DNA from: Dehalococcoidia bacterium | GTDB taxonomy: Bacteria > Chloroflexota > Dehalococcoidia > GIF9 > AB-539-J10 | Assembly (NCBI GenBank): GCA_021162245.1 | Contig: JAGGZD010000018.1 | Location: 1 to 62,683, forward strand | Direction: 5' to 3' | DNA: 62,683 nt | Shown here: positions 5,534-62,435 of the stretch, in pieces | Layout of the letters: the number at the start of each line of letters is the position of its first letter | Numbering within the stretch: the stretch's first letter is position 1 | Position numbers and translations under genes: made by a program | Notes under the pieces: model-generated | Database searches by the model: none | What the model saw: only the letters and a program-made list of their open reading frames with translations | What the model was told of the DNA's origin: nothing

Positions 5534-5567
5534 ATCCTCAGAGCACAAATTTTTTATGTTGTTAAAG

Positions 5568-5640
<73 letters not shown>

Positions 5641-26301: not shown

Positions 26302-26381
26302 TCGGTTTCTCCTGCCAGGCTGCTACCGCTATCCAGACTGGTGAATACAGTTCATCTTTACGCCTGCTATACTTATCTGAA

Positions 26382-27593
26382 TTAAATACCCGTCTGCCCA
26401 TAAATGGAATACATGGCGGAAACCAGAGCCAAGGCAATAAAGCCAACTACTACTCCAATAAATATGGTCATAGCAGGAGTGATAAGTGATACCATGGTTT
26501 TCGTTTTATCGTCGGCTTCAGCCTCATAACTTTCAGCTACGGTGGTTAATGTGCTATCCAGATTACCTGTTTCCTCGCCCACTGCTGTCATTTGCACCAT
26601 AAGAGGCAGAAAAACCTTGTTTTTCGCCATGGGGGCGGATAGGCCTGCGCCGGCAATCATGCTCTGTTGCACTTCAGTCAATGCCTTTTCCATAACTTTA
26701 TTTTTAGTTCCCCGAATAAGCAAAGTCATTATCTCGGGCAGAGGCAATCCACTGCTATATAGCAATACTATATTGCGGCAACACCTGGAGAGCTCATTAA
26801 GGAGGTTGATGCGCCCAACTTTGGGCAGGCTAAGCGATATCTTGCTCCACTGATACTTGCCTGGGGGAGTTCTGCTATAGACAAAGCCAGCGACAACAAT
26901 AGCCAGCAGAGCTAGCAGCAGCCAGAGCCCATACTGTTGCGTCCACTCCGTGAGGGTAAGTAGCGCCCTGGTCGCCGCTGGCAACTGAACATCAAATGCA
27001 GAATACATATTGGCAAAAGTAGGTAAAACAAAGGCGACTAATACGCCAATAACTGCAATAGCTACGATAAGTACGATAAAGGGATATAGCAAGGCGTTCT
27101 TTACACTTTTCTGAGTTGCAGCTGTCCTTTGTAAATAATCAGCCGCACGTCTTAGCACCGTTTCAAGATTACCCGTTCGTTCCCCTACGGCTATCAGGCG
27201 ATGATAAATCTGAGAAAAAGCGTGAGGGTATTTTCCCATAGCTTCCGACAGGGACGAGCCTGCCCGGACATCGGAGATCACGCTGGCGAGTACCTTTTTC
27301 AAAGGGCGGTTGGTTATTTGAGCTTGTAGCAGCTCCAGAGAAGTAACGGCATCGGTGCCTGATTCGATCAACAATGCCAGCTGGCGGGAAAACATTATAA
27401 GCTCGGTTGGGTTTATAGCAGAAAATCGAGAGCTTAATTTCCCTGCGCTGAAGAAGGGTGTAATCTCTTTGAGGCTAAGTATCCGATAGCCGCTGGAATC
27501 CAACGCGTCGGCAGCAGCTCCCTCGTTAGGGGCGGAAATCTTGCCTTTGATTATTCTATTATTTTCGCCACTGGCTACATAACTATAATTCAT
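26382..27593 (-). CDS. pilC: Type IV pilus platform protein PilC (GspF family)
   Basis: 403 aa, two T2SSF repeats, three TM segments, typical ...LSEAM.KYP..FS... motif. Confidence 0.92.
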   Translation of the reverse strand: MNYSYVASGENNRIIKGKISAPNEGAAADALDSSGYRILSLKEITPFFSAGKLSSRFSAINPTELIMFSRQLALLIESGTDAVTSLELLQAQITNRPLKKVLASVISDVRAGSSLSEAMGKYPHAFSQIYHRLIAVGERTGNLETVLRRAADYLQRTAATQKSVKNALLYPFIVLIVAIAVIGVLVAFVLPTFANMYSAFDVQLPAATRALLTLTEWTQQYGLWLLLALLAIVVAGFVYSRTPPGKYQWSKISLSLPKVGRINLLNELSRCCRNIVLLYSSGLPLPEIMTLLIRGTKNKVMEKALTEVQQSMIAGAGLSAPMAKNKVFLPLMVQMTAVGEETGNLDSTLTTVAESYEAEADDKTKTMVSLITPAMTIFIGVVVGFIALALVSAMYSIYGQTGI

Positions 27594-27736
27594 AGCAACC
27601 TCAATCTCTAATGTCTAAGCTCTAAAGCCCAAATTCAAATACCAAAACTCACTTTGTTTTCTCCGCTATCGAGCCGAAGATTTTTACTTTTGTTCTTTTA
27701 TCATATTTCGCCTGCGTTTTAACTGTATTTATCATT

Positions 27737-30070
27737 CTACTCTATTAAGTAAGCATTCCGTAGTACCTCGGAGGGAGTAGTGATGCCCGCTTTTACTTTC
27801 ATCATGCCGTCCTTAATCAGGAGTGTCAACCCCTCTTCGATTGCCTGTTGCCGAATCCCAGCAGTGCTGGCGCCTTTTAGTATTTGCGTTCTTATTTTAT
27901 CGCTTATGGGTAAAACTTCGAACAGCCCTGTTCTGCCTCTATAACCTGTATAGGAGCACAGCTCGCAGCCATCGCCCTGGAGAAACTCGGTTCGCTCTTC
28001 CCCTGTTTCCCTGGTATAGGCTACTTGTTCCATCAGGGGAACCTGCTGGTAACTGGAGCAATGAGAACAAACACGGCGCACCATGCGTTGAGCCACTACG
28101 CCGATAATCGCTGAGGACACCAGGAAAGGTTCTATTCCCAGGTCAAGCAGACGGAAGACGACGCCGATGGCGTCATTGGCGTGGATGGAAGTGAGGACCA
28201 GGTGCCCCGTCAGGGCGGCCTGAATGGCTATTCTGGCTGTCTCAGCATCGCGGATTTCCCCTACCAGCATGATATCGGGGTCCAGTCGCAGCATGGAGCG
28301 TAATCCGCTGGCGAAAGTAACTCCTGCCCTGGCATTTACCTGGACCTGGTTGATATTGGGGAAGTGGTATTCAACAGGGTCTTCGATGGTAATTATATTT
28401 CGGGATACTTTGTCCAATTTATTCACTGAGGCATAGAGGGTGGTAGTTTTGCCTGAGCCTGTGGGGCCGCTAATTAAAATCATACCAAAAGGAACTTTAA
28501 GCATATCCTCATATTTGCTCAAGGCTTCAGGGGAAAAACCTAGCTGGGGCAAATCTATAATTCCCAGAGATTTATCCAGAAGGCGCAACACCGTCATCTC
28601 CCCATTGACTGTGGGTGATGTGGCCACACGAACATCTATAAACCTTCCCTTGGACTGGGTGGAAAATTGCCCGTCCTGAGGGCGGAGACGGTCAGCAATA
28701 TTCATATCAGCCATTATCTTTATTCTTGAAGTGAGCGGGAGGTGTATTTTCAATGGGAGCGACATAATATCCTGGAGCGCACCATCGATGCGGAAGCGAA
28801 TTCTTAACCTGTCTTCTTCTGGTTCGATATGGACATCGGAGGTTCTGGCTTTAACCGCTTCATCGACAATGAGGCGCAAGGCACTAGCCACAGGAGTATC
28901 CTGGGCAGCTTCAATCAGGCGTTGCTCATCCACTTTCCCTGCATCTACAGGCATGCGGGATATCTGGTCTTCTATTTGTCCGAAACCTTTATAGTTGAAG
29001 TCGATAGCTTCACGAATTTCCTTTTCACTGGCAGCTACAGGATATATTCTCATCTTGCTCTGCGACGCCAGCGCTTCCAGCGCAAAGATGTCAGACGGAT
29101 TTGCCATAGCCACTTGCAGAGCATTATTCACAATAGCCATGGGCATGACATTAAATCTTCTTGCCATGCTTTCGGGAATGAGCTGTAAAACTTCGGGTTG
29201 GTCTATGTGTTTAAGCGCTACTTCTTTCGGCTTGGTTTCGACTTCCGGCGTCGAATCGAGCAATTTTTCAATGGTGTTCTGGAGCTTGGCTGCACTCCCC
29301 TTCTTTTTTGTAGCTGTTTTCGGGGTGCGGTTATCTAGTTCAATAATCTTTATTCTCTGGTGCTCAGCAAACTGCTTAATTTCAGGCGCAATTTTCCCAG
29401 AAACCAGCAGAACCTTTCTTTGAATTCCACAATCATAGGATTTGGTGTCGAACAAGGATATCTGGTTTAAGTTTAATTCATTGCCGCTCAAATCATCTAT
29501 GCCCAGCTTATGAGCTATAAAGCCATCATCCAGGGAAGCCAGGATATCGAAATTGTATTCTGCCCCAGATTTCCCTCTAACTTTGCTGTTCTCCTCAACT
29601 ATATAGCCGAGCTCGCTCAGAATCTGTATTGCCTCGCTTTTTGTCTTAGGATGGAAAGAGGTGTTTTTCTTAGCCTGCCTGGCAGGAAGAGCTGTATCCA
29701 AAAATGCTGTTAGTGTTTTGTCATCGAAGATTCTTATTCGCTGTGCTTCAGCAAAACGTTTGGCCGCAGGCTCAATTCCGGGGAGGGCAATAAGTATTTT
29801 ATCCTGAATGCCACAATCATAACATTTGTCATCAAAGGTGAAGGCTCTACTCAGGCTTATTTCCTGCCCATTTTCATTTTGAGCAATATCTATGGCGACA
29901 GTATAAGTCATAAAGTCGCTGTCGCTACGAGCTAGAATATCGAACGCATGCTGAACGCCAGATTTACCTGTGAGAGAAGCATTTTGTTCCACTTTGTAGC
30001 CCTGCTCTTCAAGCCGTTGCACAAACTGGCTTTTAAGTTGCTCGACTTGTTTTCGTGCTATTTGTTGCAT
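27737..30070 (-). CDS. pilB: Type IV pilus assembly ATPase PilB (GspE family) with an approx. 250-aa N-terminal tandem-duplicated extra domain
   Basis: 777 aa. T2SSE_N-like segment (LIPESMARRFNVMPMA...), Walker A GPTGSGKTTT, Asp/His boxes, tetracysteine CSHC...CELC. Residues 8-120 and 143-247 are clear internal repeats. Confidence 0.92.
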   Translation of the reverse strand: MQQIARKQVEQLKSQFVQRLEEQGYKVEQNASLTGKSGVQHAFDILARSDSDFMTYTVAIDIAQNENGQEISLSRAFTFDDKCYDCGIQDKILIALPGIEPAAKRFAEAQRIRIFDDKTLTAFLDTALPARQAKKNTSFHPKTKSEAIQILSELGYIVEENSKVRGKSGAEYNFDILASLDDGFIAHKLGIDDLSGNELNLNQISLFDTKSYDCGIQRKVLLVSGKIAPEIKQFAEHQRIKIIELDNRTPKTATKKKGSAAKLQNTIEKLLDSTPEVETKPKEVALKHIDQPEVLQLIPESMARRFNVMPMAIVNNALQVAMANPSDIFALEALASQSKMRIYPVAASEKEIREAIDFNYKGFGQIEDQISRMPVDAGKVDEQRLIEAAQDTPVASALRLIVDEAVKARTSDVHIEPEEDRLRIRFRIDGALQDIMSLPLKIHLPLTSRIKIMADMNIADRLRPQDGQFSTQSKGRFIDVRVATSPTVNGEMTVLRLLDKSLGIIDLPQLGFSPEALSKYEDMLKVPFGMILISGPTGSGKTTTLYASVNKLDKVSRNIITIEDPVEYHFPNINQVQVNARAGVTFASGLRSMLRLDPDIMLVGEIRDAETARIAIQAALTGHLVLTSIHANDAIGVVFRLLDLGIEPFLVSSAIIGVVAQRMVRRVCSHCSSYQQVPLMEQVAYTRETGEERTEFLQGDGCELCSYTGYRGRTGLFEVLPISDKIRTQILKGASTAGIRQQAIEEGLTLLIKDGMMKVKAGITTPSEVLRNAYLIE

Positions 30071-30209: not shown

Positions 30210-33200
30210 ATGGGCAAGAGGACATCTCTGGTATTATATCTGGGACTGGTTGCTTTGTTGGCATTACCTGGGTTGCTTCCCTTTATCAGACCTGAACTCG
30301 CTCTGGCTAACCCCGATGAACTGAAGTGGTCTATTGTGGATAGTCCTGGCGAAGAGGGCAATGTTGTAGTTAGCCCCAGTGAAATAAATGCTTTTGCCCT
30401 TGATTCTGAAAATGAAATCTACTATGCACTGGACATTCCCAATGAAATTATCTATAAGTCGATTGACGGAGGCATTACATGGGAGGATGATTTAGCCGAA
30501 GCGCTTCAAAGCGAAGGTGCTATTTTGCCTGCATGGGATATAGCTGTGGCGCCGAATGACCCGGAGTTATTAGCTGTGGTCACCGATGACAGACAGGAGG
30601 TTTATGTTTCCGAGGATGGTGGAGACAGCTGGACAGATATGCAACTTTCAAGTGCCACAGATTGGGATGCAAGCTTGCTCATTTCTGACATTGCCATTTC
30701 TCCGGAATACAGCGGCAATATAGATATCGCCGTGGGCACACGGAATCCAGATAGCTTTAACAACGGCGACGTCTGGGTAATAGAGTCAGAATTCCTTGCT
30801 GTCTGGAAGGCTCAGGAATTGGGACTGGATGTGACGTCAGTTCAATTTTCGCCTGATTACGGGAACGATGAGGCTATACTGGTTGTTGCCAGCGATGCTG
30901 ATAAAACTTATCTTTGCACTGGTATCAGAAATACCGGTGCAAATAGCACGAATTGGGAGGAAACCGATCCACCTAAAGTGGAGATAAGTGAATACAGCGG
31001 GGATTCACCGGGGGAAAGCGAAATTATCTTCTCCGACCTGGCATTGCCCTCTGATTATTCAAGGCTTCAATCCGGGAAACGTATTGTTTATGCTGCTTAT
31101 AGCTCAAACACAACTGCCGACGACGTTTACCGTATCGAAGACAGCGACGTCTTCAGGCTGGATACTAATCGCGGCGATGCAGTTTCTATAGCTTCCATTG
31201 CCTTCCATGGCACTTGCGACGGGGGGAAGTTGCTGGCCGGGGAAGTGGTATCTAAAGCGGATTCAGCTACTGCTTTAATTCACATTTGTTTTGAACCTGA
31301 AGAAGTCTTCCCCGATTGGGAGAAACCTGAAAAGCCACCCACGGGGGGAGCTATTTCAGACAATGCCAATGCTCAAGTTGCCTGGAGCAGTGATGGAGAA
31401 ATGGCTTATTGTGGGACAGGCACTAACCATGTAACGAATGCTAATGAGTGGGCTGACCCTGACAAATGGGCTGGCCAGGCTTATGATGAAAGCGCCTTTT
31501 CCCAAAGCGAAAATGATGGCGATACATGGAACCAGCTATCTCTCATAGACACTATGATGGCGCATCTTTGCGATTATGCACTGCTCACGGACACGGAGAA
31601 TGACGAAGCCCCATACCTTCTTTATCTGGTTTCGGTAAGCAGCAGATTCGACAGTATATGGCGAAGCGAAAGCGAAACACTGGAAACACTGGGGGAAATC
31701 TGGCAAAGAGTATTGTGCTTCGATGGCGCAACCGATGACATAGTTTTGAGGCCTACTCCAGAGGGTAGTCCAGAAGAGGCTATTTTCTTCGCCGCTCTGG
31801 ACAGCGATTACGCCCGCTGTTCAACGGACTATGGGGATACCTGGGAATGGGTCTGGGAATGCCCTCATATCACTGACTTAGCCGTAGTAAGCGACACATT
31901 GCTCTATGTCCTGGATGACAATTTAGTGAACAAGGGTGTATGGGAAGACAAGGACTATGGGGATACCTGGGAATGGGACATGGGTGTGGATACAGGCCTT
32001 CTTTCTGGTTACAGCATATCTACTAGCGGCGAGAATTTTGTTTTCGTTGGGGATGAAGGGGATGAAGGTATAGTTGCTTATTCGGTTGACGGTGGAGTCA
32101 CTTTTGAGCAAACTTTAGCTGTGCCTGAGTCAGAGCCGGGGGAAATATGGGTGATTCCCGACGAAGATTTCGATAACAATAGATTTATTTATGCTGCTGG
32201 CAGTGAAGGTGGAATTTACAGTTGGACTATCGAAGGGAGCACATCGTGGCAGCAATTGACCCCTCCCCATTCAGGATTTTGTGGCCTGACTCAGAGTGGT
32301 GGCGCTCTGTATGGAAATTATGGACCTGGCATTGCCCGTACGCTAATACCACACATGGTAACTATTACCGAAGATGATTGGGATGAACTTACTGTTGGAT
32401 TAGACAGTGGAACTTCCTTCAGAAAAGGTACGCTGAGGGCGGTACGCAATGAAACCATAGATTTATGGGCTATCGACGAGCGAACTTATGATTTTCCCCA
32501 AAGCGAAGGATGCCTATGGGTTTATTCCGACAGCATTGCCTTGCAATCACCATGGCCGACTTCGCCAGCTATAGGGGAATTGCTTCTCTGTGACCCCTGT
32601 GATTGCCATGCCAGAACATTCAGCTTCCGCTGGCGGAAATTACCTTCAACTGAAAAATATGACTTGTGGATATCCCTGGATGAGCAATTTGAATCTGTGC
32701 TGGCTAAAGTAGAGGTATCTCCTGTTGACCTTAGCGACCCTGCCTGCAATTCGCTTGAAATTCCGCTACGCTTTACTTGTGGGGAGATTTACTACTGGAA
32801 GGTGAGAGGCAGCGGCACCGAGGAGGAGAGCATTCATAGCCGCTGGTCGCCGCCAATGAACTTTACTGTAAAAATCTGCTCCTCGATGGGGAGCATGCAC
32901 ATTGCACCTGTAATAGAAGTCCCACAAAGCGACAGCAGCGATGTGCCCAGATCACCTGCTTTCTCCTGGACGGGCTTCTCTCATGCTACAAAGTATGAGT
33001 TTATTCTGGCCAGGGATGTTGACTTAACTCAGATAGTAGTCAGAGAGAAGGTGCCCATATCAGCTTATGTATATAATGGCAAACTCGATTGGGGCACAAC
33101 CTACTTCTGGAGGGTGAAAGCCATCGAGCCTGTTCCCAGTGAACCCAGTGTCATAAGTAGCTTTACCGTAGTGTCAGCGCCAGAGCCAACTGTCCCTGCA

Positions 33201-33305
33201 GCGGCAGTAGTAGCGCCACCAACACCATCCTGGGTATGGTTTATCATTGGCATACTGGCGCTGTTAGACATTGTCATCGTTGTGCTTTGCCTTGTCAGGC
33301 GGTAG
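30210..33305 (+). CDS. Large cell-surface protein: signal peptide, Asp-box (BNR) beta-propeller-like region, two C-terminal FN3-like modules, C-terminal TM anchor
   Basis: Signal LVLYLGLVALLALPG...ALA. Asp-box-like motifs SIDGGITW, SEDGGDSW, SENDGDTW, STDYGDTW, DKDYGDTW, SVDGGVTF. Repeated modules ending YYWKVRG / YFWRVKA. C-terminal WVWFIIGILALLDIVIVVLCLVRR. Confidence 0.75.
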   Translation: MGKRTSLVLYLGLVALLALPGLLPFIRPELALANPDELKWSIVDSPGEEGNVVVSPSEINAFALDSENEIYYALDIPNEIIYKSIDGGITWEDDLAEALQSEGAILPAWDIAVAPNDPELLAVVTDDRQEVYVSEDGGDSWTDMQLSSATDWDASLLISDIAISPEYSGNIDIAVGTRNPDSFNNGDVWVIESEFLAVWKAQELGLDVTSVQFSPDYGNDEAILVVASDADKTYLCTGIRNTGANSTNWEETDPPKVEISEYSGDSPGESEIIFSDLALPSDYSRLQSGKRIVYAAYSSNTTADDVYRIEDSDVFRLDTNRGDAVSIASIAFHGTCDGGKLLAGEVVSKADSATALIHICFEPEEVFPDWEKPEKPPTGGAISDNANAQVAWSSDGEMAYCGTGTNHVTNANEWADPDKWAGQAYDESAFSQSENDGDTWNQLSLIDTMMAHLCDYALLTDTENDEAPYLLYLVSVSSRFDSIWRSESETLETLGEIWQRVLCFDGATDDIVLRPTPEGSPEEAIFFAALDSDYARCSTDYGDTWEWVWECPHITDLAVVSDTLLYVLDDNLVNKGVWEDKDYGDTWEWDMGVDTGLLSGYSISTSGENFVFVGDEGDEGIVAYSVDGGVTFEQTLAVPESEPGEIWVIPDEDFDNNRFIYAAGSEGGIYSWTIEGSTSWQQLTPPHSGFCGLTQSGGALYGNYGPGIARTLIPHMVTITEDDWDELTVGLDSGTSFRKGTLRAVRNETIDLWAIDERTYDFPQSEGCLWVYSDSIALQSPWPTSPAIGELLLCDPCDCHARTFSFRWRKLPSTEKYDLWISLDEQFESVLAKVEVSPVDLSDPACNSLEIPLRFTCGEIYYWKVRGSGTEEESIHSRWSPPMNFTVKICSSMGSMHIAPVIEVPQSDSSDVPRSPAFSWTGFSHATKYEFILARDVDLTQIVVREKVPISAYVYNGKLDWGTTYFWRVKAIEPVPSEPSVISSFTVVSAPEPTVPAAAVVAPPTPSWVWFIIGILALLDIVIVVLCLVRR

Positions 33306-42890: not shown

Positions 42891-43484
42891 TTGAAAATAA
42901 GTAGAACAACCAGGTGGATTTTAACTATTGGCATTCTCGCCATTTTCTTGGCGAGTTTAACTGTGCTTTACCTTCGCCAAACAACGGAGCTAAGATATTT
43001 AAATGCCAGCATAATCCAGGCTCAACAAAATTTTAAAACATACACGACACAGGAAAAGGAGCTGGAGGCAGAGCTCAATCAAGTTGAATCAAGCATTCCT
43101 GCCCTTCCAGGTGAGTTCAGCTCTTCCCTTGAATCCGTAGAGATTAGCGATGCTTTACTTGAAGCCGCCGATGAAGCCAATGTAACCATAACTGAATTCA
43201 GCACTTCGCTCCCCGACAATGAGGAAATAAATGGCATCACTTACCGGGTTGTCTATATCGATCTGACTGCTGAAGGGAAAATGGTGTCGACTCTCAACTT
43301 TGCACAGAAGCTCGGTGACAGGTTTCCCAGCAGCGAAATACAACAGGTAGAGATAGAAGTGACGAAGGTAGGAAATGAAGCGGAGGAAGGGGAGGAAGAG
43401 AAGACCGGGAAAGAGACTGAAGAAGAAAAAGCATCACTCAGTTTAAGTTTAAAAATTTATGCTTACGAGGTCAATAATGGCTAA
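42891..43484 (+). CDS. PilO-like pilus assembly protein (TM + coiled coil + acidic tail)
   Basis: TTG start. N-terminal TM WILTIGILAIFLASLTVLY followed by a coiled coil. Lies immediately upstream of pilM/N. Confidence 0.5.
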   Translation: MKISRTTRWILTIGILAIFLASLTVLYLRQTTELRYLNASIIQAQQNFKTYTTQEKELEAELNQVESSIPALPGEFSSSLESVEISDALLEAADEANVTITEFSTSLPDNEEINGITYRVVYIDLTAEGKMVSTLNFAQKLGDRFPSSEIQQVEIEVTKVGNEAEEGEEEKTGKETEEEKASLSLSLKIYAYEVNNG

Positions 43485-44919
43485 AGAAGTGACTACCATA
43501 TATATAGATGACTCCGCTATCCGGGTATTGAGAAGCAAGGGAAGACAGGTAAGAAAGTGGGCCGATATGCCGCTGGAATCTGGCCTGGTTAAGGACGGAA
43601 CAGTCGTCGACGAGGACGCTGTGGCTGCCAAAATTAAGGAGTTATGGCAGACCCAAAAAATAGGAAGCAGGAAGGTGATAGCCGGCGTCAACGGCATAAA
43701 TTGCCTCTATCGCTTAATCACCCTCCCTGAACTACCCAAAAACATATTGCCCGAAGCAGTGGAAAGAGAAGCCCGCAGAATTTTAGCCATCCCCCTGGAG
43801 CAACTTCACCTTTCCTGGCAAGCTATTCTTACATTGAAAAAAGGAGAAATGCTGGTTTACCTGGCAGCCTTGCCCAGAAATTCCACGGATGGCCTGATTT
43901 CGACGCTACATAAAGCGGGGCTGAATCCTTACCTTATGGATTTAAAGCCCCTGGCCCTGGCCAGGACTATCACCGAAACTAAAGCTATCCTCATCGACGT
44001 TCAACCCGGCAATTTCGATATCGTGATTTTAATGGGCGAAATTCCACAAGTGGTACGCAGCCTGCCATTAGACCGAGAGGCTTCGCTGGACGGGAAAATG
44101 CCCCTCATCAAAGAGGAATTGCAGAGGGCTATCACTTTTTATAACTCCAGCCACCTGGAGGAGCCCATTGAAGCCAGCGTGCCTGTGCTAATCAGCGGGG
44201 AGCTATCCGGGCAGCCAGATAGCTGGGAGCTATTACTTGCAAAGCAAAAACACCCTGTCCAGATACTACCTTCCCCCATGGAGAGCAGTGAAGATTTCCC
44301 CGCAAGCCAATATACAACTAACATTGGCTTAGCCCTCAAGGAAGTGCTGGCCTCAGAGAAAGGAGCCATCGCTTATTCCCTGGTCAATTTCAATGCCCTC
44401 CCTGAAATGTACATTCCCAGGCCTCGCCCTGTATCTGAAATTCTCTTCGCGCCCGTTATCACAATTGGCATTGCCCTGCTGGCTCTGGGCGCTTTCGCTA
44501 ATATCACTACCTTAAACCGTGTCACTGATTCACGCCACAACCTGGCAACTGTACAGCAGATGGCTCTCTCCAGCCACGCTCAAATCGAGCACATAACAGC
44601 TCTCATCGAGGAAGCCTCTTCTACCAAAACCACTGCAGATGCTTTCACCGCCACTCTCAACGATATACATGTCAGCAGGGACGAAATCAATGGCGACCTG
44701 GCTCAGGTAAACAGTTGCCTGTCTGGCGCTATAAAGCCTCCACTCTCTGTAAGCGCTGATGGTGAAGTATTGACAGTGGACGGCCTGGCTGATGATGCTG
44801 ACGCCGTTTTGCACTATGCCAGAGAGTTGAGGGCCACCGGCAGGTTCGCCTCCGTGCTTATTGCCAGCATGAGCCAGCAAGAACAGCAGATAAAATTCAC
44901 CCTGGAGCTCAGTAAATAA
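43477..44919 (+). CDS. pilM: PilM-PilN fusion protein (actin-like ATPase fold + TM + PilN-like periplasmic domain)
   Basis: Start at MAKEV (GAGG upstream). N-terminus IYIDDSAIRVL...GLVKDGTVVDEDAVAAKIKELW is PilM-like. TM at FAPVITIGIALLALGAF, then a PilN-like C-terminal region. Confidence 0.8.
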   Translation: MAKEVTTIYIDDSAIRVLRSKGRQVRKWADMPLESGLVKDGTVVDEDAVAAKIKELWQTQKIGSRKVIAGVNGINCLYRLITLPELPKNILPEAVEREARRILAIPLEQLHLSWQAILTLKKGEMLVYLAALPRNSTDGLISTLHKAGLNPYLMDLKPLALARTITETKAILIDVQPGNFDIVILMGEIPQVVRSLPLDREASLDGKMPLIKEELQRAITFYNSSHLEEPIEASVPVLISGELSGQPDSWELLLAKQKHPVQILPSPMESSEDFPASQYTTNIGLALKEVLASEKGAIAYSLVNFNALPEMYIPRPRPVSEILFAPVITIGIALLALGAFANITTLNRVTDSRHNLATVQQMALSSHAQIEHITALIEEASSTKTTADAFTATLNDIHVSRDEINGDLAQVNSCLSGAIKPPLSVSADGEVLTVDGLADDADAVLHYARELRATGRFASVLIASMSQQEQQIKFTLELSK

Positions 44920-44962
44920 CCCTGCACTGCTCAAATATACCCCGGAAGCTTCGTAAAAATAC

Positions 44963-46042
44963 ATGGTAAACATCGTAGATTTGCTTCGATTAGCCAAGGA
45001 AAAAGATGCCTCGGATTTGCACATGGTGGTTAACTCCCCTCCTATGCTACGTATAGATGGCGTCCTGGAACCCATGGAGGGAATAGCGCCGCTATCCCCT
45101 GAGGAAATAAGCGAGGCCTTTGCCCGGCTAAGTACAGCAGAGCAAAGAAAGAGATTTCACGACACGCTGGAACTTGATTTCGGCTATGCCCTCCCCGATG
45201 TCGGCAGGTTGAGGTGCAATGTTGCCCAGCAGCGTGAGACAATCAGTTTTGCCGTGCGGCTCCTGCCGTTTGCAATTCCCAGCGTAGATGAGCTGGAGTT
45301 GCCACAGTTATACAAGGAATTAGCTTTGCGGCCCAGGGGCCTGGTGATAGCTTCGGGCCCTACTGGAAGCGGCAAAAGCACTACACTGGCAACCATGATA
45401 AACCACATAAACCACCATCGCGCCTGCTATGTAGTCACCATCGAAGACCCCATCGAGTATATCTATCCTAACCTCAAATCAATCATTACACAACGGGAAC
45501 TGGGTAGAGACACCCTGTCCTTCGTCTCAGCCTTGAAACATGTCCTCAGGCAGGATCCGGACGTAATACTTGTCGGCGAGATGAGGGACCCGGAGACCGC
45601 TGCCGCGGCGCTCAACGTGGCGGAAAAGGGGCACCTGGTATTTACCACAGGGCACGCTCCCAACGCAGCACAGGCTATGGAAAGAATAATCGACCTGTTT
45701 CCACCACGCGAGAGATACCTGGCACAGGTGAGACTGGCATCCCTTACCATCGCTGTCATATCTCAGGCCCTGGTCCCACGGGCTGACGGCTCAGGGAGAA
45801 TAGCTGCGGTGGAAATAATGCTGGCAAGTGTCGCAGTGAAAAACCTAATCAGGGAAGGCAAAATTCACCAGCTCCACAATGTTATCCGCAACAGCAACAA
45901 GAAAGGCATGCAAACACTGGACCAATCGCTGGCTCAACTTTACCTCGAAGGAGTCATCACAGGAGAGAGTCTGCGGCAATTTTGCCACAACAGGAAAGAA
46001 ATAGAGGAAGTAATAGGCAAACTGCCCCTTCCCGGCACATAA
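44963..46042 (+). CDS. pilT: Twitching-motility retraction ATPase PilT
   Basis: 359 aa. ASDLHM, Walker A GPTGSGKSTT, ILVGEMRD, TGHLVF-type motifs. Confidence 0.92.
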   Translation: MVNIVDLLRLAKEKDASDLHMVVNSPPMLRIDGVLEPMEGIAPLSPEEISEAFARLSTAEQRKRFHDTLELDFGYALPDVGRLRCNVAQQRETISFAVRLLPFAIPSVDELELPQLYKELALRPRGLVIASGPTGSGKSTTLATMINHINHHRACYVVTIEDPIEYIYPNLKSIITQRELGRDTLSFVSALKHVLRQDPDVILVGEMRDPETAAAALNVAEKGHLVFTTGHAPNAAQAMERIIDLFPPRERYLAQVRLASLTIAVISQALVPRADGSGRIAAVEIMLASVAVKNLIREGKIHQLHNVIRNSNKKGMQTLDQSLAQLYLEGVITGESLRQFCHNRKEIEEVIGKLPLPGT

Positions 46043-48093: not shown

Positions 48094-48517
48094 AATTTGT
48101 GTGGATAAAACTCTTTCCCCTGTGGTGAAGCACATCACCCAGGAAAAAATTAACTCTTATGCCGAAGCCTCGGGGGACTTTAACCCTATCCACGTAGATG
48201 AGGCTTTTGCTACCCAAACGCCGCTGGGCGGCACCATAGCCCACGGCATGCTTATTCTGGCTTACGCCTCAGAGATGATGACGCAGTCTTTCGGCAGAAA
48301 CTGGAATTCCACAGGTAAATTTTCCATTCGCTTTAAAGTGCCGGCACGCCCAGGGGACACCATAACCACCACGGGGAAAATCGATTCCGTCGAGGACAAA
48401 GAAAGCACTCCATCCGTGAACTGCAGTATCGAATGCCACAACCAAAAGGGGGAAACTATAATCATGGGCGGGGCGACAGTCAAACTTTCACCTCAAAAAA
48501 GGATGTCCAATGCCTGA
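48083..48517 (+). CDS. MaoC-like dehydratase with hydratase-2 motif (HadB-like catalytic 3-hydroxyacyl-ACP/CoA dehydratase subunit)
   Basis: YAEASGDFNPIHVDEAFA matches the hydratase-2 signature (S-G-D-x-N-P-I-H-x5-A), followed by IAHGM. Confidence 0.8.
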   Translation: MLSEICVDKTLSPVVKHITQEKINSYAEASGDFNPIHVDEAFATQTPLGGTIAHGMLILAYASEMMTQSFGRNWNSTGKFSIRFKVPARPGDTITTTGKIDSVEDKESTPSVNCSIECHNQKGETIIMGGATVKLSPQKRMSNA

Positions 48518-49544
48518 AGTTAGCAAGAGGACAAGGATAGCAGTCGATGCTATGGGAGGCGATCATGCCCCCGAAGAGATAGTTAAAGGAGCAATTCAGG
48601 CTGCACAGAAAGACCATGTGGAAGTTATCCTGGTTGGACTCATGGATGTATTAGAAAAGGAGTTGTGCAAGTATCATTCTTCAGGGAGTTTACCCCTCCG
48701 TTGTGTCGCAGCCAGCGATGTTATTAAAGAAAATGAATCACCCAGCCTGGCAATTCGCCGTAAATCTAACTGCTCCATAGCTGTGGCTACAAAGCTGGTA
48801 AAAGCAGGTGAGGCGGATGCTGTAGTGGGTGCTGGCTCTTCAGGAGCAGCGGCTGTTAGTGCCATCCACTACATGGGCATGGTGGAAGGAATGGAGCGTC
48901 CTGCAATCTGCGCCCCCCTCAGCAGCTTCGCCCCCAACGTACTACTTGTAGATTTCGGTGCTAATGTTGACTGCAAACCGTATCAGCTTCTAGCATTTGC
49001 CGTTGCTGGGACTGTCTATGCCAGGAAGATATTTAACATTGCCAACCCTGCTGTAGGCTTGTTGAGCACAGGAAGTGAGAAAAACAAAGGGAATGAAGTG
49101 GTACGTGAAACTTACCCTCTCCTTGAAAAAAGCGACTTGAATTTTATCGGCAATATAGAAGGCAGCGATATTCTCAGTGGGCGAGCCAATGTTATCGTTT
49201 GCGATGGATTCGTGGGCAACATCATAATCAAATTCTATGAAAGCATAGGGAAATACGCCATGAAATGGATGGAAAGGAAGGTAAATGGACATCCGCTGGT
49301 AAGTAGCGTGGCTAGATTGTCATTTAACAAAATATTCCCTGTAAACAAACTGAGCTATGAAAGCGAGGATATGGGCGGTGGTATTTTATGGGGTATTGAC
49401 GGCGTTGTCAGAATAGCGCACGGAGCTTCTCGAGCTCCACACATTGCTCATGCCATAGCAAGCGCCAGCAATGCTGTGGAGACTGACCTTGTTGGCTGTT
49501 TAAAGTCGGAACTGGCGAAACTGAGAAAAGAGGGCAAAATGTAA
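48510..49544 (+). CDS. plsX: Phosphate acyltransferase PlsX (copy 2)
   Basis: IAVDAMGGDHAP, GSSGAA, VCDGFVGNIIIK; 344 aa. Confidence 0.9.
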   Translation: MPEVSKRTRIAVDAMGGDHAPEEIVKGAIQAAQKDHVEVILVGLMDVLEKELCKYHSSGSLPLRCVAASDVIKENESPSLAIRRKSNCSIAVATKLVKAGEADAVVGAGSSGAAAVSAIHYMGMVEGMERPAICAPLSSFAPNVLLVDFGANVDCKPYQLLAFAVAGTVYARKIFNIANPAVGLLSTGSEKNKGNEVVRETYPLLEKSDLNFIGNIEGSDILSGRANVIVCDGFVGNIIIKFYESIGKYAMKWMERKVNGHPLVSSVARLSFNKIFPVNKLSYESEDMGGGILWGIDGVVRIAHGASRAPHIAHAIASASNAVETDLVGCLKSELAKLRKEGKM

Positions 49545-50662: not shown

Positions 50663-51889
50663 TTGAGCATGCCCCGTGTTGTAGCGACTGGAATGGGCAC
50701 CATTAACCCACTGGGATTGAGCGTGGAGGAGTTCTGGGAGGGGTTGGTTGCTGGAAAATCGGGTATCGGCCCTATCACCCACTTCGACAGCAGAAAATTC
50801 TATGTGAAAGTGGATGCCGAGGTGAAGGGATTCGACCCCACGGAATATATGGGACCAAAGATAGTTGACCGTAATCCAAGAGCTGTTCATTTTGCTATCG
50901 CTGCAGCTAGAGAAGCAATAAAATCAGCCAGGTTGAATATGACACGGGAATGTCCCGAACGTGTAGGAGTCAGTATTGGCTGTATGGCGGGGACAGACTA
51001 TATTATCAGACAAAATGAACTGTTTGAGAAACGTGGTCCAAGGAGAGTCGACCCTCTTTTTATAGCCAAATCAGGCCCCAGCGCGGCGGCAATGCAGGTA
51101 GGAATGTTCCTGGGAGCCAAGGGCCCCAATTCCAGCGTCAATAGCCTTTGTGCTACAGGTCTTGATGCCATAGGCACTGCCGTGAATTTCATCCGATTGG
51201 GATATGCAGATGTGATGGTAGCTGGGGGGGCTGATTCCAGTTTAAACCCTATCGGCATGGCCGGTATCGACATACTGGGAGCCCTTTCACGTGAACCAGA
51301 CCCAGCTAAGGCTTCCCGTCCGTTTGACCTCAATCGTAGCGGCTTTATCTATGGCGAAGGAGCAGGAATTGTTGTCCTGGAAAGTTATAAACACGCAAAA
51401 AAAAGAGGGGTGCCAATCCTGGCTGAGTTAGCCGGCGTCGGCTGGTCTTTTGACGCCTATGACCAGACTGCTCCTTCCGCTGAGACTGAAGCTTACGCTA
51501 TAAGCTCAGCTTTACAAAATGCAGGAGTAAAACCCGAAAAAATTAACTATATTAACGCCCATGGCACCAGCACCAGGTTAAATGATGCCAGCGAAAGCAA
51601 AGCTATCAAAATAGTATTTGGAGAAAAAGCTCATAAAATTCCTATCAGCTCCACCAAGTCTATGATTGGACATACAGTGACTGCTGCCGGAGCTATTGAG
51701 GCTATCGCCTGCATACTTACCCTGAATAAGGGAATTATCCACCCAACCATAAATTATGAGACAGCCGATCCCGAGTGTGACCTGGATTACGTTCCAAACG
51801 TAGCCAGATCCACACAAGTAAATACCTGCCTGACGAATAGCTTTGGACTGGGAGGCGAGAATTGCTGCATGGTGCTTAAAAGGATTTAG
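50663..51889 (+). CDS. fabF: 3-oxoacyl-ACP synthase II (copy 2)
   Basis: 408 aa. RVVATGMGTINP, active-site Cys in NSLCATGLDA, INAHGTST, KSMIGHTVTAAG, NSFGLGGEN. Start at TTG 50663 or ATG 50669. Confidence 0.9.
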   Translation: MSMPRVVATGMGTINPLGLSVEEFWEGLVAGKSGIGPITHFDSRKFYVKVDAEVKGFDPTEYMGPKIVDRNPRAVHFAIAAAREAIKSARLNMTRECPERVGVSIGCMAGTDYIIRQNELFEKRGPRRVDPLFIAKSGPSAAAMQVGMFLGAKGPNSSVNSLCATGLDAIGTAVNFIRLGYADVMVAGGADSSLNPIGMAGIDILGALSREPDPAKASRPFDLNRSGFIYGEGAGIVVLESYKHAKKRGVPILAELAGVGWSFDAYDQTAPSAETEAYAISSALQNAGVKPEKINYINAHGTSTRLNDASESKAIKIVFGEKAHKIPISSTKSMIGHTVTAAGAIEAIACILTLNKGIIHPTINYETADPECDLDYVPNVARSTQVNTCLTNSFGLGGENCCMVLKRI

Positions 51890-57550: not shown

Positions 57551-58825
57551 CTAATTTACTTTTGGGGTTTTGAGCCTCTTGCCTTTGTATTGTGGTTTCA
57601 TTGATAGAGCTAATTTTTTCTCCCCCTCCGCAGTCTTAACCTCGCCATCCAGTTTCGCTTTATGTAATACCTGGAGGATTTCTCCTAATTCCAGTCCAGC
57701 AGAAAAGCCTAATTTCTTCAGACTATCTCCATTGAGCAATGTCTTTACATGCCTCAATCTAGCTATAAATAGCTCAAGATTAGAACGTGTAGATGAAGAT
57801 TCCGAGGCTATGGCGTTGGCCTGGACAGCTAATGGGTCATATTCACGGAGCAAATAATAAATCTCACTGTGTTTTACAGAGGTCTTACACAGGAGGTGAA
57901 GCCGGCTCTTCAACTGAAGCGTGTCACGAAGCGCTCGAGCCAATTTCGCTGGCACGTTAAGGCGATGAATGAGTCGCTCGCTTTCCTCCTGGCTAAGAGA
58001 ATAAATAAAAAGGCATAGATAAAGTGTGGGTAGTTGACCAGATTTACTTAACAATCGCGCTTTAGAAAACTTCTCAGCTATCCAGCCATTTCCCCTAAGA
58101 GCAGAATTTACTCTCTGTAACACTCCCAGTTCTCCAAGACGCCCAAGGGCAGACTCCGGATGTTTCTCTTTAAGTATCAATTCTAATTCATGCCTTATAC
58201 GGTCGCCACTTATAGTATCCAGCATGGGAATACTCTGTTGAAGCATCTGCAACGTTTGCAATTCAAGTTCAAATCCGAGACGTTGTTCGTAACGGATAGC
58301 ACGGAAAATTCTGGTAGCATCATCCCTAAAACTCCCTGAGTGCAAAATGCGGATGTAACGGCGCTCAATGTCATCGCTGCCTTGAAAAGGATCAATAAGC
58401 TCCCCATGATTACTCGGCACAAGCGATATAGCCATAGCATTGATAGAGAAATCGCGACGAAAAAGATCATCCCTGATAGTCCCATAAACAACTGTGGGCA
58501 ATGCACCTGGTTTGGAATAGGTTTCACACCGTGCTGTAGCTATATCCAAAGTAAAATTGCTATAACCAAGCTTAGCAGTACCAAAACGAGGATGTGTAAC
58601 CAGTCGTAGTTGTCTGGTCTTAGCTATTTGTTGAGCTAATTTCACGGCATCACCCTCAATTACCATGTCCAGGTCGAGGTTAGAATACCCCAAGAACAAA
58701 TCTCGTACCACGCCACCAACAAGATAGGCTTTATGCCCCATTTGGTTAGCTTTCCTGCTAATATCCTCAACTAACTCCAACATTTGCTGAGGCAAATATC
58801 GTTCAATTTGCGAAGCAACGTTCAC
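57551..58825 (-). CDS. cca: CCA-adding enzyme / poly(A) polymerase-family tRNA nucleotidyltransferase
   Basis: GTG start. YLVGGVVRDLFLG...DLDMVIEG head-domain motif, RRDFSINAMA. Confidence 0.85.
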   Translation of the reverse strand: MNVASQIERYLPQQMLELVEDISRKANQMGHKAYLVGGVVRDLFLGYSNLDLDMVIEGDAVKLAQQIAKTRQLRLVTHPRFGTAKLGYSNFTLDIATARCETYSKPGALPTVVYGTIRDDLFRRDFSINAMAISLVPSNHGELIDPFQGSDDIERRYIRILHSGSFRDDATRIFRAIRYEQRLGFELELQTLQMLQQSIPMLDTISGDRIRHELELILKEKHPESALGRLGELGVLQRVNSALRGNGWIAEKFSKARLLSKSGQLPTLYLCLFIYSLSQEESERLIHRLNVPAKLARALRDTLQLKSRLHLLCKTSVKHSEIYYLLREYDPLAVQANAIASESSSTRSNLELFIARLRHVKTLLNGDSLKKLGFSAGLELGEILQVLHKAKLDGEVKTAEGEKKLALSMKPQYKGKRLKTPKVN

Positions 58826-58944: not shown

Positions 58945-58974
58945 TTGACATTATGGCACAAAGCTGTTTACAAT
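58945..58974 (+). promoter_or_regulatory. Candidate promoter for the CetZ-like gene, leaderless-type geometry
   Basis: TTGACA (58945-58950), 18-nt spacer, TACAAT (58969-58974). ATG at 58982 is 7 nt after the -10 hexamer and has no Shine-Dalgarno sequence. Confidence 0.5.
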
Positions 58975-58981
58975 AAACCAA

Positions 58982-60154
58982 ATGAAATTATTAATTATAG
59001 GTTTAGGTCAATGCGGTGGCAGGATCGCTGATAGATTTGCTCGGCTAAACAAGAAGGCACGGTCTATGCGGGGAATTAGTATAATTGCTGATGCCTTCGC
59101 TGTTAATACTGATGTAGCTGATTTGAGTGGGCTACGCACTATTAAATCTGATTACAAACACAGAATACTTGTTGGTGGCCAAAGGACTAATGGCCACGGA
59201 GTAGGTAAGGTAAGTGAACTTGGCGCCGAGATAGCTACGGAAGATAATGATAAAATTATAGATGCTATAAGGACAACAGAGCGGTTCTATGAAACAGATG
59301 CCTTTATGTTGATCGCTTCTGCCTCCGGTGGCACTGGCTCCGGAGCAATAGGGGTAATGACACAGCATCTGAAAGAACGCTATATAGGAAAGCCAGTTTA
59401 CAATATTATTGTTCTTCCTTTCCAGCAAGAAGAAACAACAGAAGCAAGGACTATTTACAACACAGCTATGTGCCTCAAATCCGCATATCTGGTGGCTGAT
59501 GCAATATTCCTTATCGACAATCAGAGATACATCAAAAAGAACTCCCCCGCAGAAAACAACATAGCGACGATTAACTCTCGGGTAGTTGAGCCATTTTATA
59601 ACTTGCTTTGTGCTGGGGAGGAGACAAACAAGAAATATGTCGGATCGAAGACGCTAGATGCAGGGGATATAATACAGACACTGGCAGGCTGGACAGTAAT
59701 TGGCGAAGGCAAATCGTCAATTCGAAGAAAGATGCCTTTGCTTGGACAAGCACGTGATTTCAGAGACAGGATGTCTGAAACAAGCAAAGCTGCTCATGCC
59801 ATGGACGAAGCACTGGGAGAATTATCGCTCACGTGTAGCCCCAAAAATGCTGGAAGGGCTTTGTATCTCGTCACTGCGCCGCCAAGTGAAATGAAAATGG
59901 AAGTAATACAACAACTTGGGGACAATTTAAAGGCTGTGGCTCCAGATGCTTTGACCCGCAGTGGTGATTACCCCAGACAGAAGGGCTCATTGAGCGTTAC
60001 TATGATTCTATCGGATATCAGCAACACGAGGAAAGTCACAAAGTACTTTACTAAGGCAATCGACTTGATTTCTGTTATGAAATCTAAACGCGGGCTGGAG
60101 TACTCAGGCAGAAAGCTTGAAGAGGCTTTCAGCGACATTCCTGTATTACTATAA
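58982..60154 (+). CDS. Tubulin/FtsZ-superfamily GTPase, CetZ-like
   Basis: 390 aa. T1 loop IIGLGQCGG, GHGVG...ELGAEIATED, T4 signature ASGGTGSG (aa 114-121), HLKERY..KPVYNIIVLP, FLIDNQRY (tubulin/CetZ-like DN motif), IIQTLAG, C-terminal SGDYP. Confidence 0.8.
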   Translation: MKLLIIGLGQCGGRIADRFARLNKKARSMRGISIIADAFAVNTDVADLSGLRTIKSDYKHRILVGGQRTNGHGVGKVSELGAEIATEDNDKIIDAIRTTERFYETDAFMLIASASGGTGSGAIGVMTQHLKERYIGKPVYNIIVLPFQQEETTEARTIYNTAMCLKSAYLVADAIFLIDNQRYIKKNSPAENNIATINSRVVEPFYNLLCAGEETNKKYVGSKTLDAGDIIQTLAGWTVIGEGKSSIRRKMPLLGQARDFRDRMSETSKAAHAMDEALGELSLTCSPKNAGRALYLVTAPPSEMKMEVIQQLGDNLKAVAPDALTRSGDYPRQKGSLSVTMILSDISNTRKVTKYFTKAIDLISVMKSKRGLEYSGRKLEEAFSDIPVLL

Positions 60155-60727: not shown

Positions 60728-62359
60728 TCAATCTTGTTCTATCTCATCTCTGTCCACAGCTTCCTCCTCAACATACTCATCTTTACCCGCCATATACATT
60801 CGAGCTAAGAAATCCAAGCGCGATTGGACATCTCTCTTAGAATCCACTAGTTTTTTCTTCTCTTTTTCACCGCCCTCAGGTTTACGTAAGGCTTTCTCAA
60901 ATATCTTTAATGGCACTTCAGGGGCCTCCCCTTTGGGGATCTCCTTTGCAATTCCTCCACCCGTTTTCTCAGTTCCACCTACCGCTTTTTCAAAGACCCG
61001 CATTGATGCTTTTGCAGCTCTCCTAGCCGATTTGGTTGTTGCCTCAGCCACAGCAATCGTCTCTCCAAATGCCTTTATCGATGTCATAACAGCCTCTCTA
61101 GCTATCTCTATCGATTTTTCAGTAATCTCTGCAATTATCCGTTTGGACTCATCAGTAACCTCTGCAGTTTCTTGGCCTATTCCCTCAGCTTTGCTTATTG
61201 CTTCCTGAGATGCTTTCTTTGCTTCCTCAGCAGACGCTTTAGCCATTCGGCTTATTTCCTCAGCCTTGCTTATTGCTTCTTGGGATATTCTTGCTGCTTC
61301 TTCGACAGATATTCTAGTCTCTCGGCTTATTTCCTCAGCCTTGCTTATTGCTTCCTGGGATGCTTTCTTTGCTTCCTCAGCTCTACTTGCCGCTTCTTGC
61401 GATGTTCTTGTTGCCCTCTCAATAGCCTCTTCGGCCAATCTAACTGATTTCTCAGCTTCGCTTACCGCCCTCTGCGATGCTTTTATTTGTGTTTTAGCCT
61501 CTTTTCGGGTCATTTTGATTACTTCATTAGCTTTATCTATAGCCTCTTTGAATGAAGTTGCTGAAGTGGCAGCAGATTCATTAGCCAAGCGGCTTACATT
61601 TTCAGCCTTATTTATCGCTTCCCTAAATGCTCTTGTTGAGGCTTCAACAGATTCCGTAGTTGCCTGGCTTATTCTCCCAGTTCTATCTACTGCTTCCTGA
61701 GATGCTCTTTCCGATTCTCTGGCAGACTTCACAATCGCTCGGCTCAATTTCTCAATTCTACTTATGGCCTCCCTGGATGCTTTTCTCGCCTCCTCAGCAG
61801 TTTCTATAGCTGTCTGGCTTACCTTCTCAGCTCTATCTACTGCTTCCAATGATGTCTCTTTAGCATTCTCAGCAATTTCTATCGCCGTCTGGCTCACCTT
61901 CTCAGCTCTATCTACTGCTTCTTGGGATGTTCTTAGTGATGCCTCGGCAGATTCATTACTTGATTTGGCCAACACCTCAATCCTGGCCACAGCTTCTTCA
62001 AATGCTTGCGTTAACGCTTTAGTGGAATCCATAGCCGATTTGACCGATGCCTCAGCTTTGTTTATCGCTTTACGGGATGATCTTCTCGCCCCTTCAACAG
62101 CCTCTGTAGCCGCCTGGCTTACTTTCTCGGCTCTATCTACTGCTTCCTGAGATATTCTCTCCGATTCCCTGGCAGTCTTTTTGGCTGCTCGACTTATCTT
62201 CTCAATTCTATCTATAGTTTCCTGAGACGCCTTTCTCGATGCTTCAGCAGCTTGTTTGGCTACATAGCTTAGCCTCTCAGCTTCGGCCACCGCCTGTTCA
62301 AATGTCCCAATATCAGCTTTCATATTCTTCAAGGATTCAGGGGACTTGTTCCACTCCAC
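60728..62359 (-). CDS. 543-aa alpha-helical repeat protein (about 17 x 25-residue repeats) with acidic C-terminal tail, unknown function
   Basis: Repeats such as EAVDRAEKVSQTAIEIAENAKETSL / EAVDRAEKVSQTAIETAEEARKASR / EAISKAEEISRMAKASAEEAKKASQ. GTG start uncertain, no clear Shine-Dalgarno sequence. Confidence 0.75.
   Translation of the reverse strand: MEWNKSPESLKNMKADIGTFEQAVAEAERLSYVAKQAAEASRKASQETIDRIEKISRAAKKTARESERISQEAVDRAEKVSQAATEAVEGARRSSRKAINKAEASVKSAMDSTKALTQAFEEAVARIEVLAKSSNESAEASLRTSQEAVDRAEKVSQTAIEIAENAKETSLEAVDRAEKVSQTAIETAEEARKASREAISRIEKLSRAIVKSARESERASQEAVDRTGRISQATTESVEASTRAFREAINKAENVSRLANESAATSATSFKEAIDKANEVIKMTRKEAKTQIKASQRAVSEAEKSVRLAEEAIERATRTSQEAASRAEEAKKASQEAISKAEEISRETRISVEEAARISQEAISKAEEISRMAKASAEEAKKASQEAISKAEGIGQETAEVTDESKRIIAEITEKSIEIAREAVMTSIKAFGETIAVAEATTKSARRAAKASMRVFEKAVGGTEKTGGGIAKEIPKGEAPEVPLKIFEKALRKPEGGEKEKKKLVDSKRDVQSRLDFLARMYMAGKDEYVEEEAVDRDEIEQD
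61040..62300 (-). repeat. In-frame tandem 75-nt (25-codon) repeat array inside the 543-aa gene
   Basis: TCTATCTACTGCTTC at 61682, 61832, 61907 and 62132 (spacings 150, 75, 225). CGGCTTATTTCCTCAGCCTTGCTTATTGCTTC at 61248 and 61323 (spacing 75). 61793-61847 vs 61868-61922 differ at about 4 positions. Confidence 0.85.
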
Positions 62360-62405: not shown

Positions 62406-62435
62406 ATTTTAATAGGAGTTACCTGGTTTTTTCAA
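62406..62435 (-). promoter_or_regulatory. Candidate promoter for the repeat-protein operon
   Basis: Minus strand TTGAAA (62435-62430), 18-nt spacer, TAAAAT (62411-62406). Confidence 0.35.

Follow-up and report, generated by a model that had tools for sequence, protein, structure and literature searches.

Among the described proteins that come closest to the one reported here are crescentin and the Streptomyces proteins FilP and Scy, long helical rods with short end domains and a non-heptad, hendecad-derived period, which are lineage-restricted and have a known cytoskeletal role. Scy is built from a 51-residue repeat. In the 62,683-nucleotide (nt) contig JAGGZD010000018.1 of a Dehalococcoidia bacterium (assembly GCA_021162245.1), analysed over its full length and called the window below, one gene encodes a 543-amino-acid (aa) protein, hereafter the repeat protein, which has the same general architecture and is likewise lineage-restricted. 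It differs from these filament proteins in several respects: it shows no sequence relation to them, its period is 25/7 = 3.57 rather than 51/14 = 3.64, its Ala/Ser-rich core is almost free of Leu, and its gene is linked to that of a tubulin homologue.

The tubulin link calls for comparison with a second group of systems. ZapA, ZapB and EzrA (for FtsZ), BtubC (for BtubA/B) and TubY (for TubZ) are coiled-coil or otherwise helical proteins that act on a filament of the tubulin superfamily or are encoded next to it, which is the arrangement we propose here, and the tubulin neighbour carries an FtsZ-like C-terminal docking peptide that adds to the likeness with FtsZ systems. The repeat protein has no Pfam match to any of these families, and its putative association with CetZ is read from gene neighbourhood. 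SF-assemblin and beta-giardin are microtubule-associated coiled coils in which a regular stutter or skip produces a strict non-heptad super-period. These are eukaryotic proteins and their 29-residue period (~4.3 nm) matches the tubulin spacing, whereas the 25-residue unit of the repeat protein (~3.7 nm) does not. CetZ proteins control archaeal cell shape, and their bacterial homologues have so far been noted in passing. The presence of CetZ-like proteins in Chloroflexota-Dehalococcoidia was noted by Santana-Molina et al. (PMC9871819), in whose paper we found no mention of the repeat protein or of the small partner protein described below; the literature searched likewise describes no CetZ accessory protein.

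All 32 loci found by means of the C-terminal motif of the repeat protein carry, within ~2 kb, genes for the repeat protein, for a small hendecad-repeat protein and for a CetZ-like protein, down to a CetZ identity of 56%. The flanking genes vary by locus (CCA-adding enzyme, ribosomal protein genes, leucyl-tRNA synthetase and others), and the linkage is kept even in L039, L044 and L046, in which CetZ is found at the opposite side of the repeat gene. Of the loci anchored on CetZ instead, 11 of the 13 that could be assessed hold both the small and the repeat protein; the two sets overlap, several contigs having been recovered by both searches. All related contigs belong to metagenome-assembled genomes of Dehalococcoidia/Chloroflexota. 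This conserved three-gene cluster is the chief pointer to what the repeat protein does. Based on these data and on the properties described below, we propose that the repeat protein may be a lineage-specific scaffold, either a coiled coil or a helical bundle, that works with a bacterial CetZ-like tubulin, as scaffold, cross-linker or anchor, and we put the probability of this reading at about one half. The protein would most likely belong to a bacterial cytoskeleton module that is so far undescribed.

The tubulin neighbour has both a GTPase domain and a CetZ C-terminal domain (Pfam Tubulin, PF00091, 6.8e-33; CetZ_C, PF21011, 8.8e-17), and CetZ structures are the closest to it in the PDB, with 4b46, which we take to be Haloferax volcanii CetZ1, at E = 2e-44 and 4b45 at E = 1e-27. 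It is thus a member of the CetZ family. The signature F.DIPVLL is conserved at the C-terminal ends of CetZ-like proteins in 45 loci (several of these are one contig fetched twice), and the window form, FSDIPVLL, resembles the DIPxFL tail that FtsZ uses for partner binding. A strong sigma-70-like match (58945-58974, TTGACA-18-TACAAT) stops 8 nt short of the ATG of the CetZ-like gene, so that the mRNA of this gene may be leaderless.

Downstream of the repeat gene, at a distance of 70 nt and in the same orientation, lies the gene for the small protein. This protein has Tyr or Phe in most of its 11-residue units (with Cys and Ile in two units of the window copy) and a period of 3.675 = 11/3. AlphaFold2, run with a 29-sequence alignment, predicts one uninterrupted helix over aa 20-127 (108 residues) with a predicted local distance difference test (pLDDT) score above 95. 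Between species the core measures 87, 98, 120 or 131 aa, that is, it changes in steps of 11. Its 29 database clusters are all metagenomic hypothetical proteins. A paralogous origin of the small and the repeat protein was considered and is not supported, the BLASTP match between them being marginal (E = 0.05).

The repeat protein itself is governed by a single period. Over aa 20-458 the identity at lag 25 is 0.355, against a best-lag mean of 0.151 in 2000 shuffles (standard deviation 0.007, maximum 0.185; z = 27.5); identity peaks of 0.27-0.35 recur at lags 25, 50, 75, 100 and 125, secondary peaks appear at lags 11, 14, 36 and 39, and in the hydrophobicity spectrum a single period dominates, 3.57 residues = 25/7, with a power of 744 versus at most 120 in the shuffles. 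The unit consensus is S-Q-E-A-(I/V)-(D/S)-(R/K)-A-E-(K/E)-(I/V)-S-(R/Q)-x-A-x-E-(S/A)-A-E-(E/A)-(S/A)-x-(R/K)-A. Small residues occupy each seventh position (4, 8/15/22) and one 4-residue stutter occurs per unit, which gives the pattern 7+7+11. Positions 1, 4, 5, 8, 11, 12, 15, 18, 19, 22 and 25 (11 of the 25) are uncharged in 15 of 15 units; on the 25/7 helical wheel they form a stripe of ~145 degrees in which Ala and Ser lie centrally and Ile and Val line the edges, the remainder of the wheel being taken up by Glu, Lys, Arg and Gln. The array contains no Pro, 4 Gly in 389 residues and 2.4% Leu, and its net charge is -3.

A preliminary description of this DNA, made from the letters and their open reading frames, had recognised a long array of 25-aa units with hydrophobic residues spaced 4-3-4-3-4-3-4; the lag-25 signal and the single 3.57 period bear out both points. 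Its count of about 17 units stands for 15 of them (12 + 3 clear units), the rest of the array consisting of one 14-mer and 2 degenerate units. At the DNA level, the 15-mer TCTATCTACTGCTTC is indeed exact at all four positions it gave (61682, 61832, 61907 and 62132; 0 expected by chance). The 75-nt repeats, which it took to be near-identical, are 76-86% alike in the arrays delimited by Tandem Repeats Finder (TRF) at 61166-61379 and 61741-61934. Nor does the register, described there as exact, persist through the entire array: the 12 copies of a 34-nt DNA family lie at spacings that are multiples of 75 nt, save for a single step of 42 nt, the 14-aa unit at aa 320-333, which shifts the phase. Its Gly/Lys-rich and then acidic tail agrees with the layout seen over aa 459-543, and its suggestion of a coiled coil with stutters or an amphipathic helix fits the period of 3.57 and a helix that AlphaFold2 predicts throughout the array with moderate confidence.

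Two further observations concern the array. The segments encoding aa 45-94 and 195-244 contain a 128-nt pair (61602-61729 and 62052-62179) with 78% identity, and there is a weaker autocorrelation bump at lag 150 aa (0.47); together they suggest an older six-unit super-repeat. Several open reading frames on the plus strand antisense to the repeat gene (91-144 aa, within 61172-62150) have matching periodicity; they are shadow frames produced by the repeat rather than genes.

The array combines a constant seam period within the ~3.5-3.67 range with a long helix free of breakers, the hallmarks of a coiled coil with regular stutters, and a continuous amphipathic helix of the 7+7+11 pattern is supported by the data. 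From the single sequence, AlphaFold2 predicts helix for residues 2-449 of a 531-aa form of the protein, folded back as three helices of ~120 residues each; given a pLDDT of 62 and a predicted template modelling (pTM) score of 0.41, we rely on the helicity of this model and not on its topology. When compared with the PDB by Foldseek, this weak model returned generic long helices alone and nothing at E <= 1e-3. The stripe of ~145 degrees is wider than the seam of a two-stranded coiled coil, and the helices probably pack as three- or four-helix bundles, in antiparallel fashion, or against the surface of a partner. A single alpha-helix (SAH) domain is ruled out by the strictly uncharged stripe of 11 positions. 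As a natural coiled-coil design, a strict 25/7 period with an Ala/Ser core is unusual.

The same unit recurs in other proteins. In the histidine kinase P0033, ~370 residues of the SQEAIxKAEE 25-mer separate the PAS domain from the HisKA domain, and the histidine kinases P0047 and P0029 have similar stretches. Helices between PAS and HisKA domains normally pair between the subunits of the kinase dimer; the occurrence of the 25-mer in such a linker thus supports a role of the stripe in packing between helices. For a signalling helix, the ~370 residues of the P0033 linker are an unusual length. A further protein, P0013, combines in one chain the AYxAY.EA signature of the small protein (BLASTP 1e-5) with 25-mer repeat units, and this fusion-type chain gives a weak hint that the repeat and small proteins may act together.

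The repeat gene is real, conserved and under purifying selection. Its ratio of nonsynonymous to synonymous substitution rates (dN/dS) against the related loci L001 and L015 is 0.25-0.31 (0.21-0.29 in the array, 0.30-0.38 in the C-terminal part), that of the neighbouring tubulin gene being 0.11, and in the same comparison the stripe positions are more often identical than the polar ones (0.92 vs 0.82). The relatives of the repeat protein range from 410 to 761 aa, and all those tested, down to a CetZ identity of 56%, keep the 3.57 period. Gaps within the array of the orthologue alignment measure 11, 25 or 50 aa, with larger insertions of 114 and 67 aa in the 761-aa protein of L008; the 14-aa unit of the window appears as an 11-aa gap relative to L003, L004, L005, L008 and L010. 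Adjacent units (145/170, 334/359) are 0.64-0.92 identical within a species and orthologous units only 0.40-0.60 between species, which indicates concerted evolution. The recent expansion and strain-to-strain length variation put forward in the preliminary description therefore hold in part: differences by whole steps of 11, 25 or 50 aa exist between species, none among the four closest relatives (the window, L001, L015 and L048), in which the gene is collinear and of equal length in independent assemblies. The same agreement answers its concern that the array might reflect an assembly error. A scan of metagenomes added one further locus, again with unchanged gene length.

Pfam, NCBIfam, PHROGs and PADLOC contain no credible match for the repeat protein, and neither does the PDB, whether queried with sequence, profile or predicted fold. 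A known identity such as phasin or late embryogenesis abundant (LEA) protein, which the preliminary description had named as the alternative, is not seen, Pfam and NCBIfam being empty for the window protein. In particular, the phasin families PF09361 and PF05597 gave it no match at E <= 0.1; there is no Pfam match to group 3 LEA proteins, perilipin or apolipoprotein A-E, and the main period is 25 with 0 Pro; coiled-coil-rich proteins of the crescentin and FilP/Scy type gave no match in Pfam, NCBIfam or the PDB, and the period is 25, not 51; and ZapA, ZapB, EzrA, SepF and BtubC are not among the Pfam matches at E <= 1. The top profile matches in the PDB are the designed helical bundles 4tql (E = 4.7e-4) and 4uos (E = 4e-3), which share with the repeat protein an idealised repetitive helix, an Ala/Ile core and a Glu/Lys/Arg surface; this similarity is compositional rather than significant homology and merely suggests the look of an idealised bundle-forming helix. 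Exact-match queries turned up no database record for the repeat protein, whether as the 543-aa or the 531-aa form, or for the CetZ-like protein. A word-indexed homology search with the full repeat protein found no match, probably because repetitive words filled its candidate list, and with the C-terminal 148 aa as query it found 5 fragment proteins only. An exhaustive phmmer search of 1.84 billion representatives gave 45 matches at E <= 1e-3, mostly short fragments; among them, the 7722-aa protein P0006, likewise built of 25-mers but containing Pro, is unrelated. One member of a divergent cluster carries the NCBI label 'ATPase, partial [Dehalococcoides sp.]'. In the literature searched there is no description of the repeat protein or of any 25-residue coiled-coil repeat. 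The repeat protein represents a new, unannotated family.

Part of this invisibility may be technical. In L015 (8663-10360) the frame is intact, yet the Joint Genome Institute (JGI) annotation calls its last 119 codons only. Seeds of the kind used to find clustered regularly interspaced short palindromic repeats (CRISPR), namely three exact 8-mers at 75-nt spacing, end ~100 nt before this call, and the window has comparable seeds at 61191-61354. The shortened gene call may plausibly stem from the array having been masked as CRISPR. Repeat masking possibly hides the family from protein databases; that the family is nearly invisible there, and that at least some annotation pipelines shorten the gene, is a warning for repeat-rich genes in general.

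According to the mechanism that we propose, the repeat protein would be a cytoplasmic, nearly all-helical rod or bundle, whose ~440-residue array is made of two heptads and one hendecad per unit and whose Ala/Ser/Ile/Val stripe would mediate the formation of bundles or filaments. Its gene would be co-transcribed with that of the small hendecad protein, and both products would join the CetZ-like tubulin to form a cytoskeletal module of Dehalococcoidia. Contacts could be made via the conserved ends of the repeat protein, TFEQAVARAE at the N-terminus and RLDFLARMY with the acidic tail at the C-terminus; the FtsZ-like C-terminal peptide of the tubulin might provide a further one. For the repeat protein, we infer the oligomeric state, the physical contact with CetZ and a role in cell shape or division. 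A simple strap with one unit per subunit along the filament was considered and is judged unlikely, as a 25-residue helix spans ~3.7 nm and the subunit spacing of tubulin/FtsZ-type filaments is ~4.0-4.4 nm. A bolder extension, that Dehalococcoidia took up or retained an archaeal-type CetZ and evolved two dedicated helical partners for it, and that the rod bundles, anchors or measures CetZ filaments and thereby helps shape or division, seems to us doubtful. If true, these would be the first known accessory proteins for a CetZ and the module a bacterial counterpart of 'tubulin plus a microtubule-associated protein (MAP)-like factor'. Cultured Dehalococcoidia are not known to have a peptidoglycan wall. 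The conserved trio in any case provides concrete candidate CetZ accessory factors and a way into the cell biology of the environmentally important, largely uncultured Dehalococcoidia.

Several observations weigh against a scaffold dedicated to CetZ. Gene neighbourhood is the sole tie between the repeat protein and CetZ, and all loci come from one class, so that their conservation is perhaps partly shared ancestry. The CetZ gene is usually convergent and hence not on the repeat-gene transcript. In L012 and L013, where CetZ identity is 52%, a multi-PAS kinase adjoins and no 25-mer protein is found nearby; the giant gene beside these distant CetZ-like genes was found to be without 25-mers. On the structural side, an Ala/Ser-rich, Leu-poor core is atypical of stable two-stranded coiled coils, the three-helix fold-back of the single-sequence AlphaFold2 model is unreliable, and the 3.7-nm unit mismatches the filament spacing.

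The repeat protein could instead be a free-standing intermediate-filament-like scaffold of the crescentin or FilP/Scy kind, which self-assembles independently of tubulin and lies near CetZ for historical reasons. The long rod with short head and tail, the periodic stutters and the unit-wise changes in length all suit such a protein, as do separate transcripts for the convergent CetZ gene and the existence of L012 and L013, which have a CetZ-like gene without the partner. We nevertheless regard this alternative as unlikely, given the linkage in 32 of 32 loci, which persists where the flanks vary and, in three of them, where CetZ is on the opposite side, and the lack of any Pfam or PDB relation to known filament families.

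An amphipathic coat or protective protein, with its small-residue face turned to a granule, membrane or other surface, is a different way to read the stripe. Phasins, group 3 LEA proteins, perilipins, apolipoproteins and GvpC share with the repeat protein tandem helical repeats, an apolar face of small residues and an 11-residue sub-period, and the wide Ala/Ser/Thr/Val face with its 11/14 sub-periodicity would serve such a function. Two of the 9 orthologues match Phasin_2 weakly and below threshold, at E = 1e-4 in the better case, the divergent member P0044 has a weak ApoLp-III match, and the small protein has weak perilipin and phasin matches at E = 0.05-0.2 (Perilipin at E = 0.053, below the cut-off). 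No such match reaches a curated cut-off, however, and the window protein has none; its main period is 25/7 and not 11/3, Pro punctuation is lacking, and an acidic tail with a near-neutral array does not suggest binding to anionic lipids. The neighbourhood of the repeat gene contains no storage-granule, gas-vesicle or lipid-storage genes, and the constant CetZ linkage would be left unexplained. We consider a coat protein improbable.

Could length itself be the function, in the manner of a tape-measure protein or an extended signalling helix? A ruler or rigid spacer of this kind, which would fix a distance within a larger assembly, would agree with length shifts confined to whole structural steps (11, 25 or 50 aa), and the 25-mer does serve as a long spacer in histidine kinases. 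The similarity to a PHROG tape-measure family is weak (E = 4e-4) and compositional, though, no phage context is present, and the length of the repeat protein does not correlate with that of its small partner (r = 0.07), which makes a ruler distinctly improbable. Lastly, a non-coding repeat array such as a CRISPR, or an assembly artefact, which the exact 8-mer chains at 75-nt spacing and the 119-codon JGI call might bring to mind, is excluded by a continuous reading frame that is intact in every complete copy examined, collinear and equally long in the four closest independent assemblies, under a dN/dS of 0.2-0.3, well below 1, and preserved in its amphipathic phase, with repeats that are 64-86% alike and 'spacers' that are themselves repeated.

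Table 1. Features of the repeat-protein gene and its two partner genes in the window
Feature	Position	Strand	Basis
CetZ-family tubulin/FtsZ-superfamily GTPase, 390 aa, convergent	58982..60154	+	Pfam, PDB
C-terminal peptide FSDIPVLL of the CetZ-like protein	60128..60151	+	Orthologue C-termini
Small hendecad-repeat protein, 129 aa	60268..60657	-	Period analysis, AlphaFold2, all partner-anchored loci
Repeat-protein gene, 543 aa from GTG 62359, alternatively 531 aa from ATG 62323	60728..62359	-	Open reading frame list
Acidic C-terminal tail, aa 527-543	60731..60781	-	Sequence and orthologues
Family-defining C-terminal motif RLDFLARMYMAGK, aa 514-526	60782..60820	-	Alignment A2
Gly/Lys/Glu/Pro-rich linker, aa 459-513	60821..60985	-	Orthologue comparison, AlphaFold2 model
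2 degenerate units, aa 409-458, including the family-conserved stretch TTKSARRAAKASMRVFEKA	60986..61135	-	Alignments A2 and A4
Repeat block 2, aa 334-408, 3 x 25 aa, most similar DNA copies	61136..61360	-	TRF array 61166-61379
Lone 14-aa unit SQEAASRAEEAKKA, aa 320-333, shifts register	61361..61402	-	Unit layout, orthologue alignment
Repeat block 1, aa 20-319, 12 x 25 aa in exact register	61403..62302	-	Unit layout, per-position composition
N-terminal head, aa 1-19	62303..62359	-	Orthologue comparison
Sigma-70-like promoter match TTGAAA-18-TAAAAT, upstream of the repeat gene	62406..62435	-	Consensus scan alone

The start codon of the repeat gene may be either of the two listed and is uncertain. 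When N-termini are compared, the more distant orthologues start at the equivalent of ATG 62323; in the nearest ones the frame is open as far as the GTG position, and in L015 this same codon is ATG. The conserved motif TFEQAVA.AE begins at aa 19. Within the C-terminal motif, alignment A2 shows no variation at R, L, F, L, Y and K, and the linker that precedes it varies in length between species and is predicted with low confidence by AlphaFold2.

The remainder of the window is an ordinary bacterial chromosome, with genes for RNase Y, RF1, GyrA, an Rnf operon, a type IV pilus, electron transfer flavoprotein and fatty-acid synthesis. Five tRNA genes, for Asn, Gln, Leu, Gly and Phe, lie close together at 5182-5640 on the minus strand. 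Genes of type IV pilus type are found at 25331-30070 and 43459-46042 and include a pilin with an N-methylation motif and PilC-, PilB-, PilM- and PilT-like proteins. At E <= 1e-6, no Pfam family matches two large open reading frames, 30210-33305 (plus strand, 1031 aa) and 23881-25197 (minus strand, 438 aa). The window contains two PlsX-type genes (8874-9941 and 48510-49544) and apparently two beta-ketoacyl synthase genes (5733-6980 and 50663-51889, the latter identified solely from its syntenic position relative to the Pfam-annotated L015). For the 424-aa nucleotidyltransferase at 57551-58825 (minus strand), the best match is a model of an A-adding enzyme, and L015 holds at 3521-5017 a second PolyA_pol+HD gene of 498 aa; the two observations together suggest split CC-adding and A-adding tRNA enzymes.

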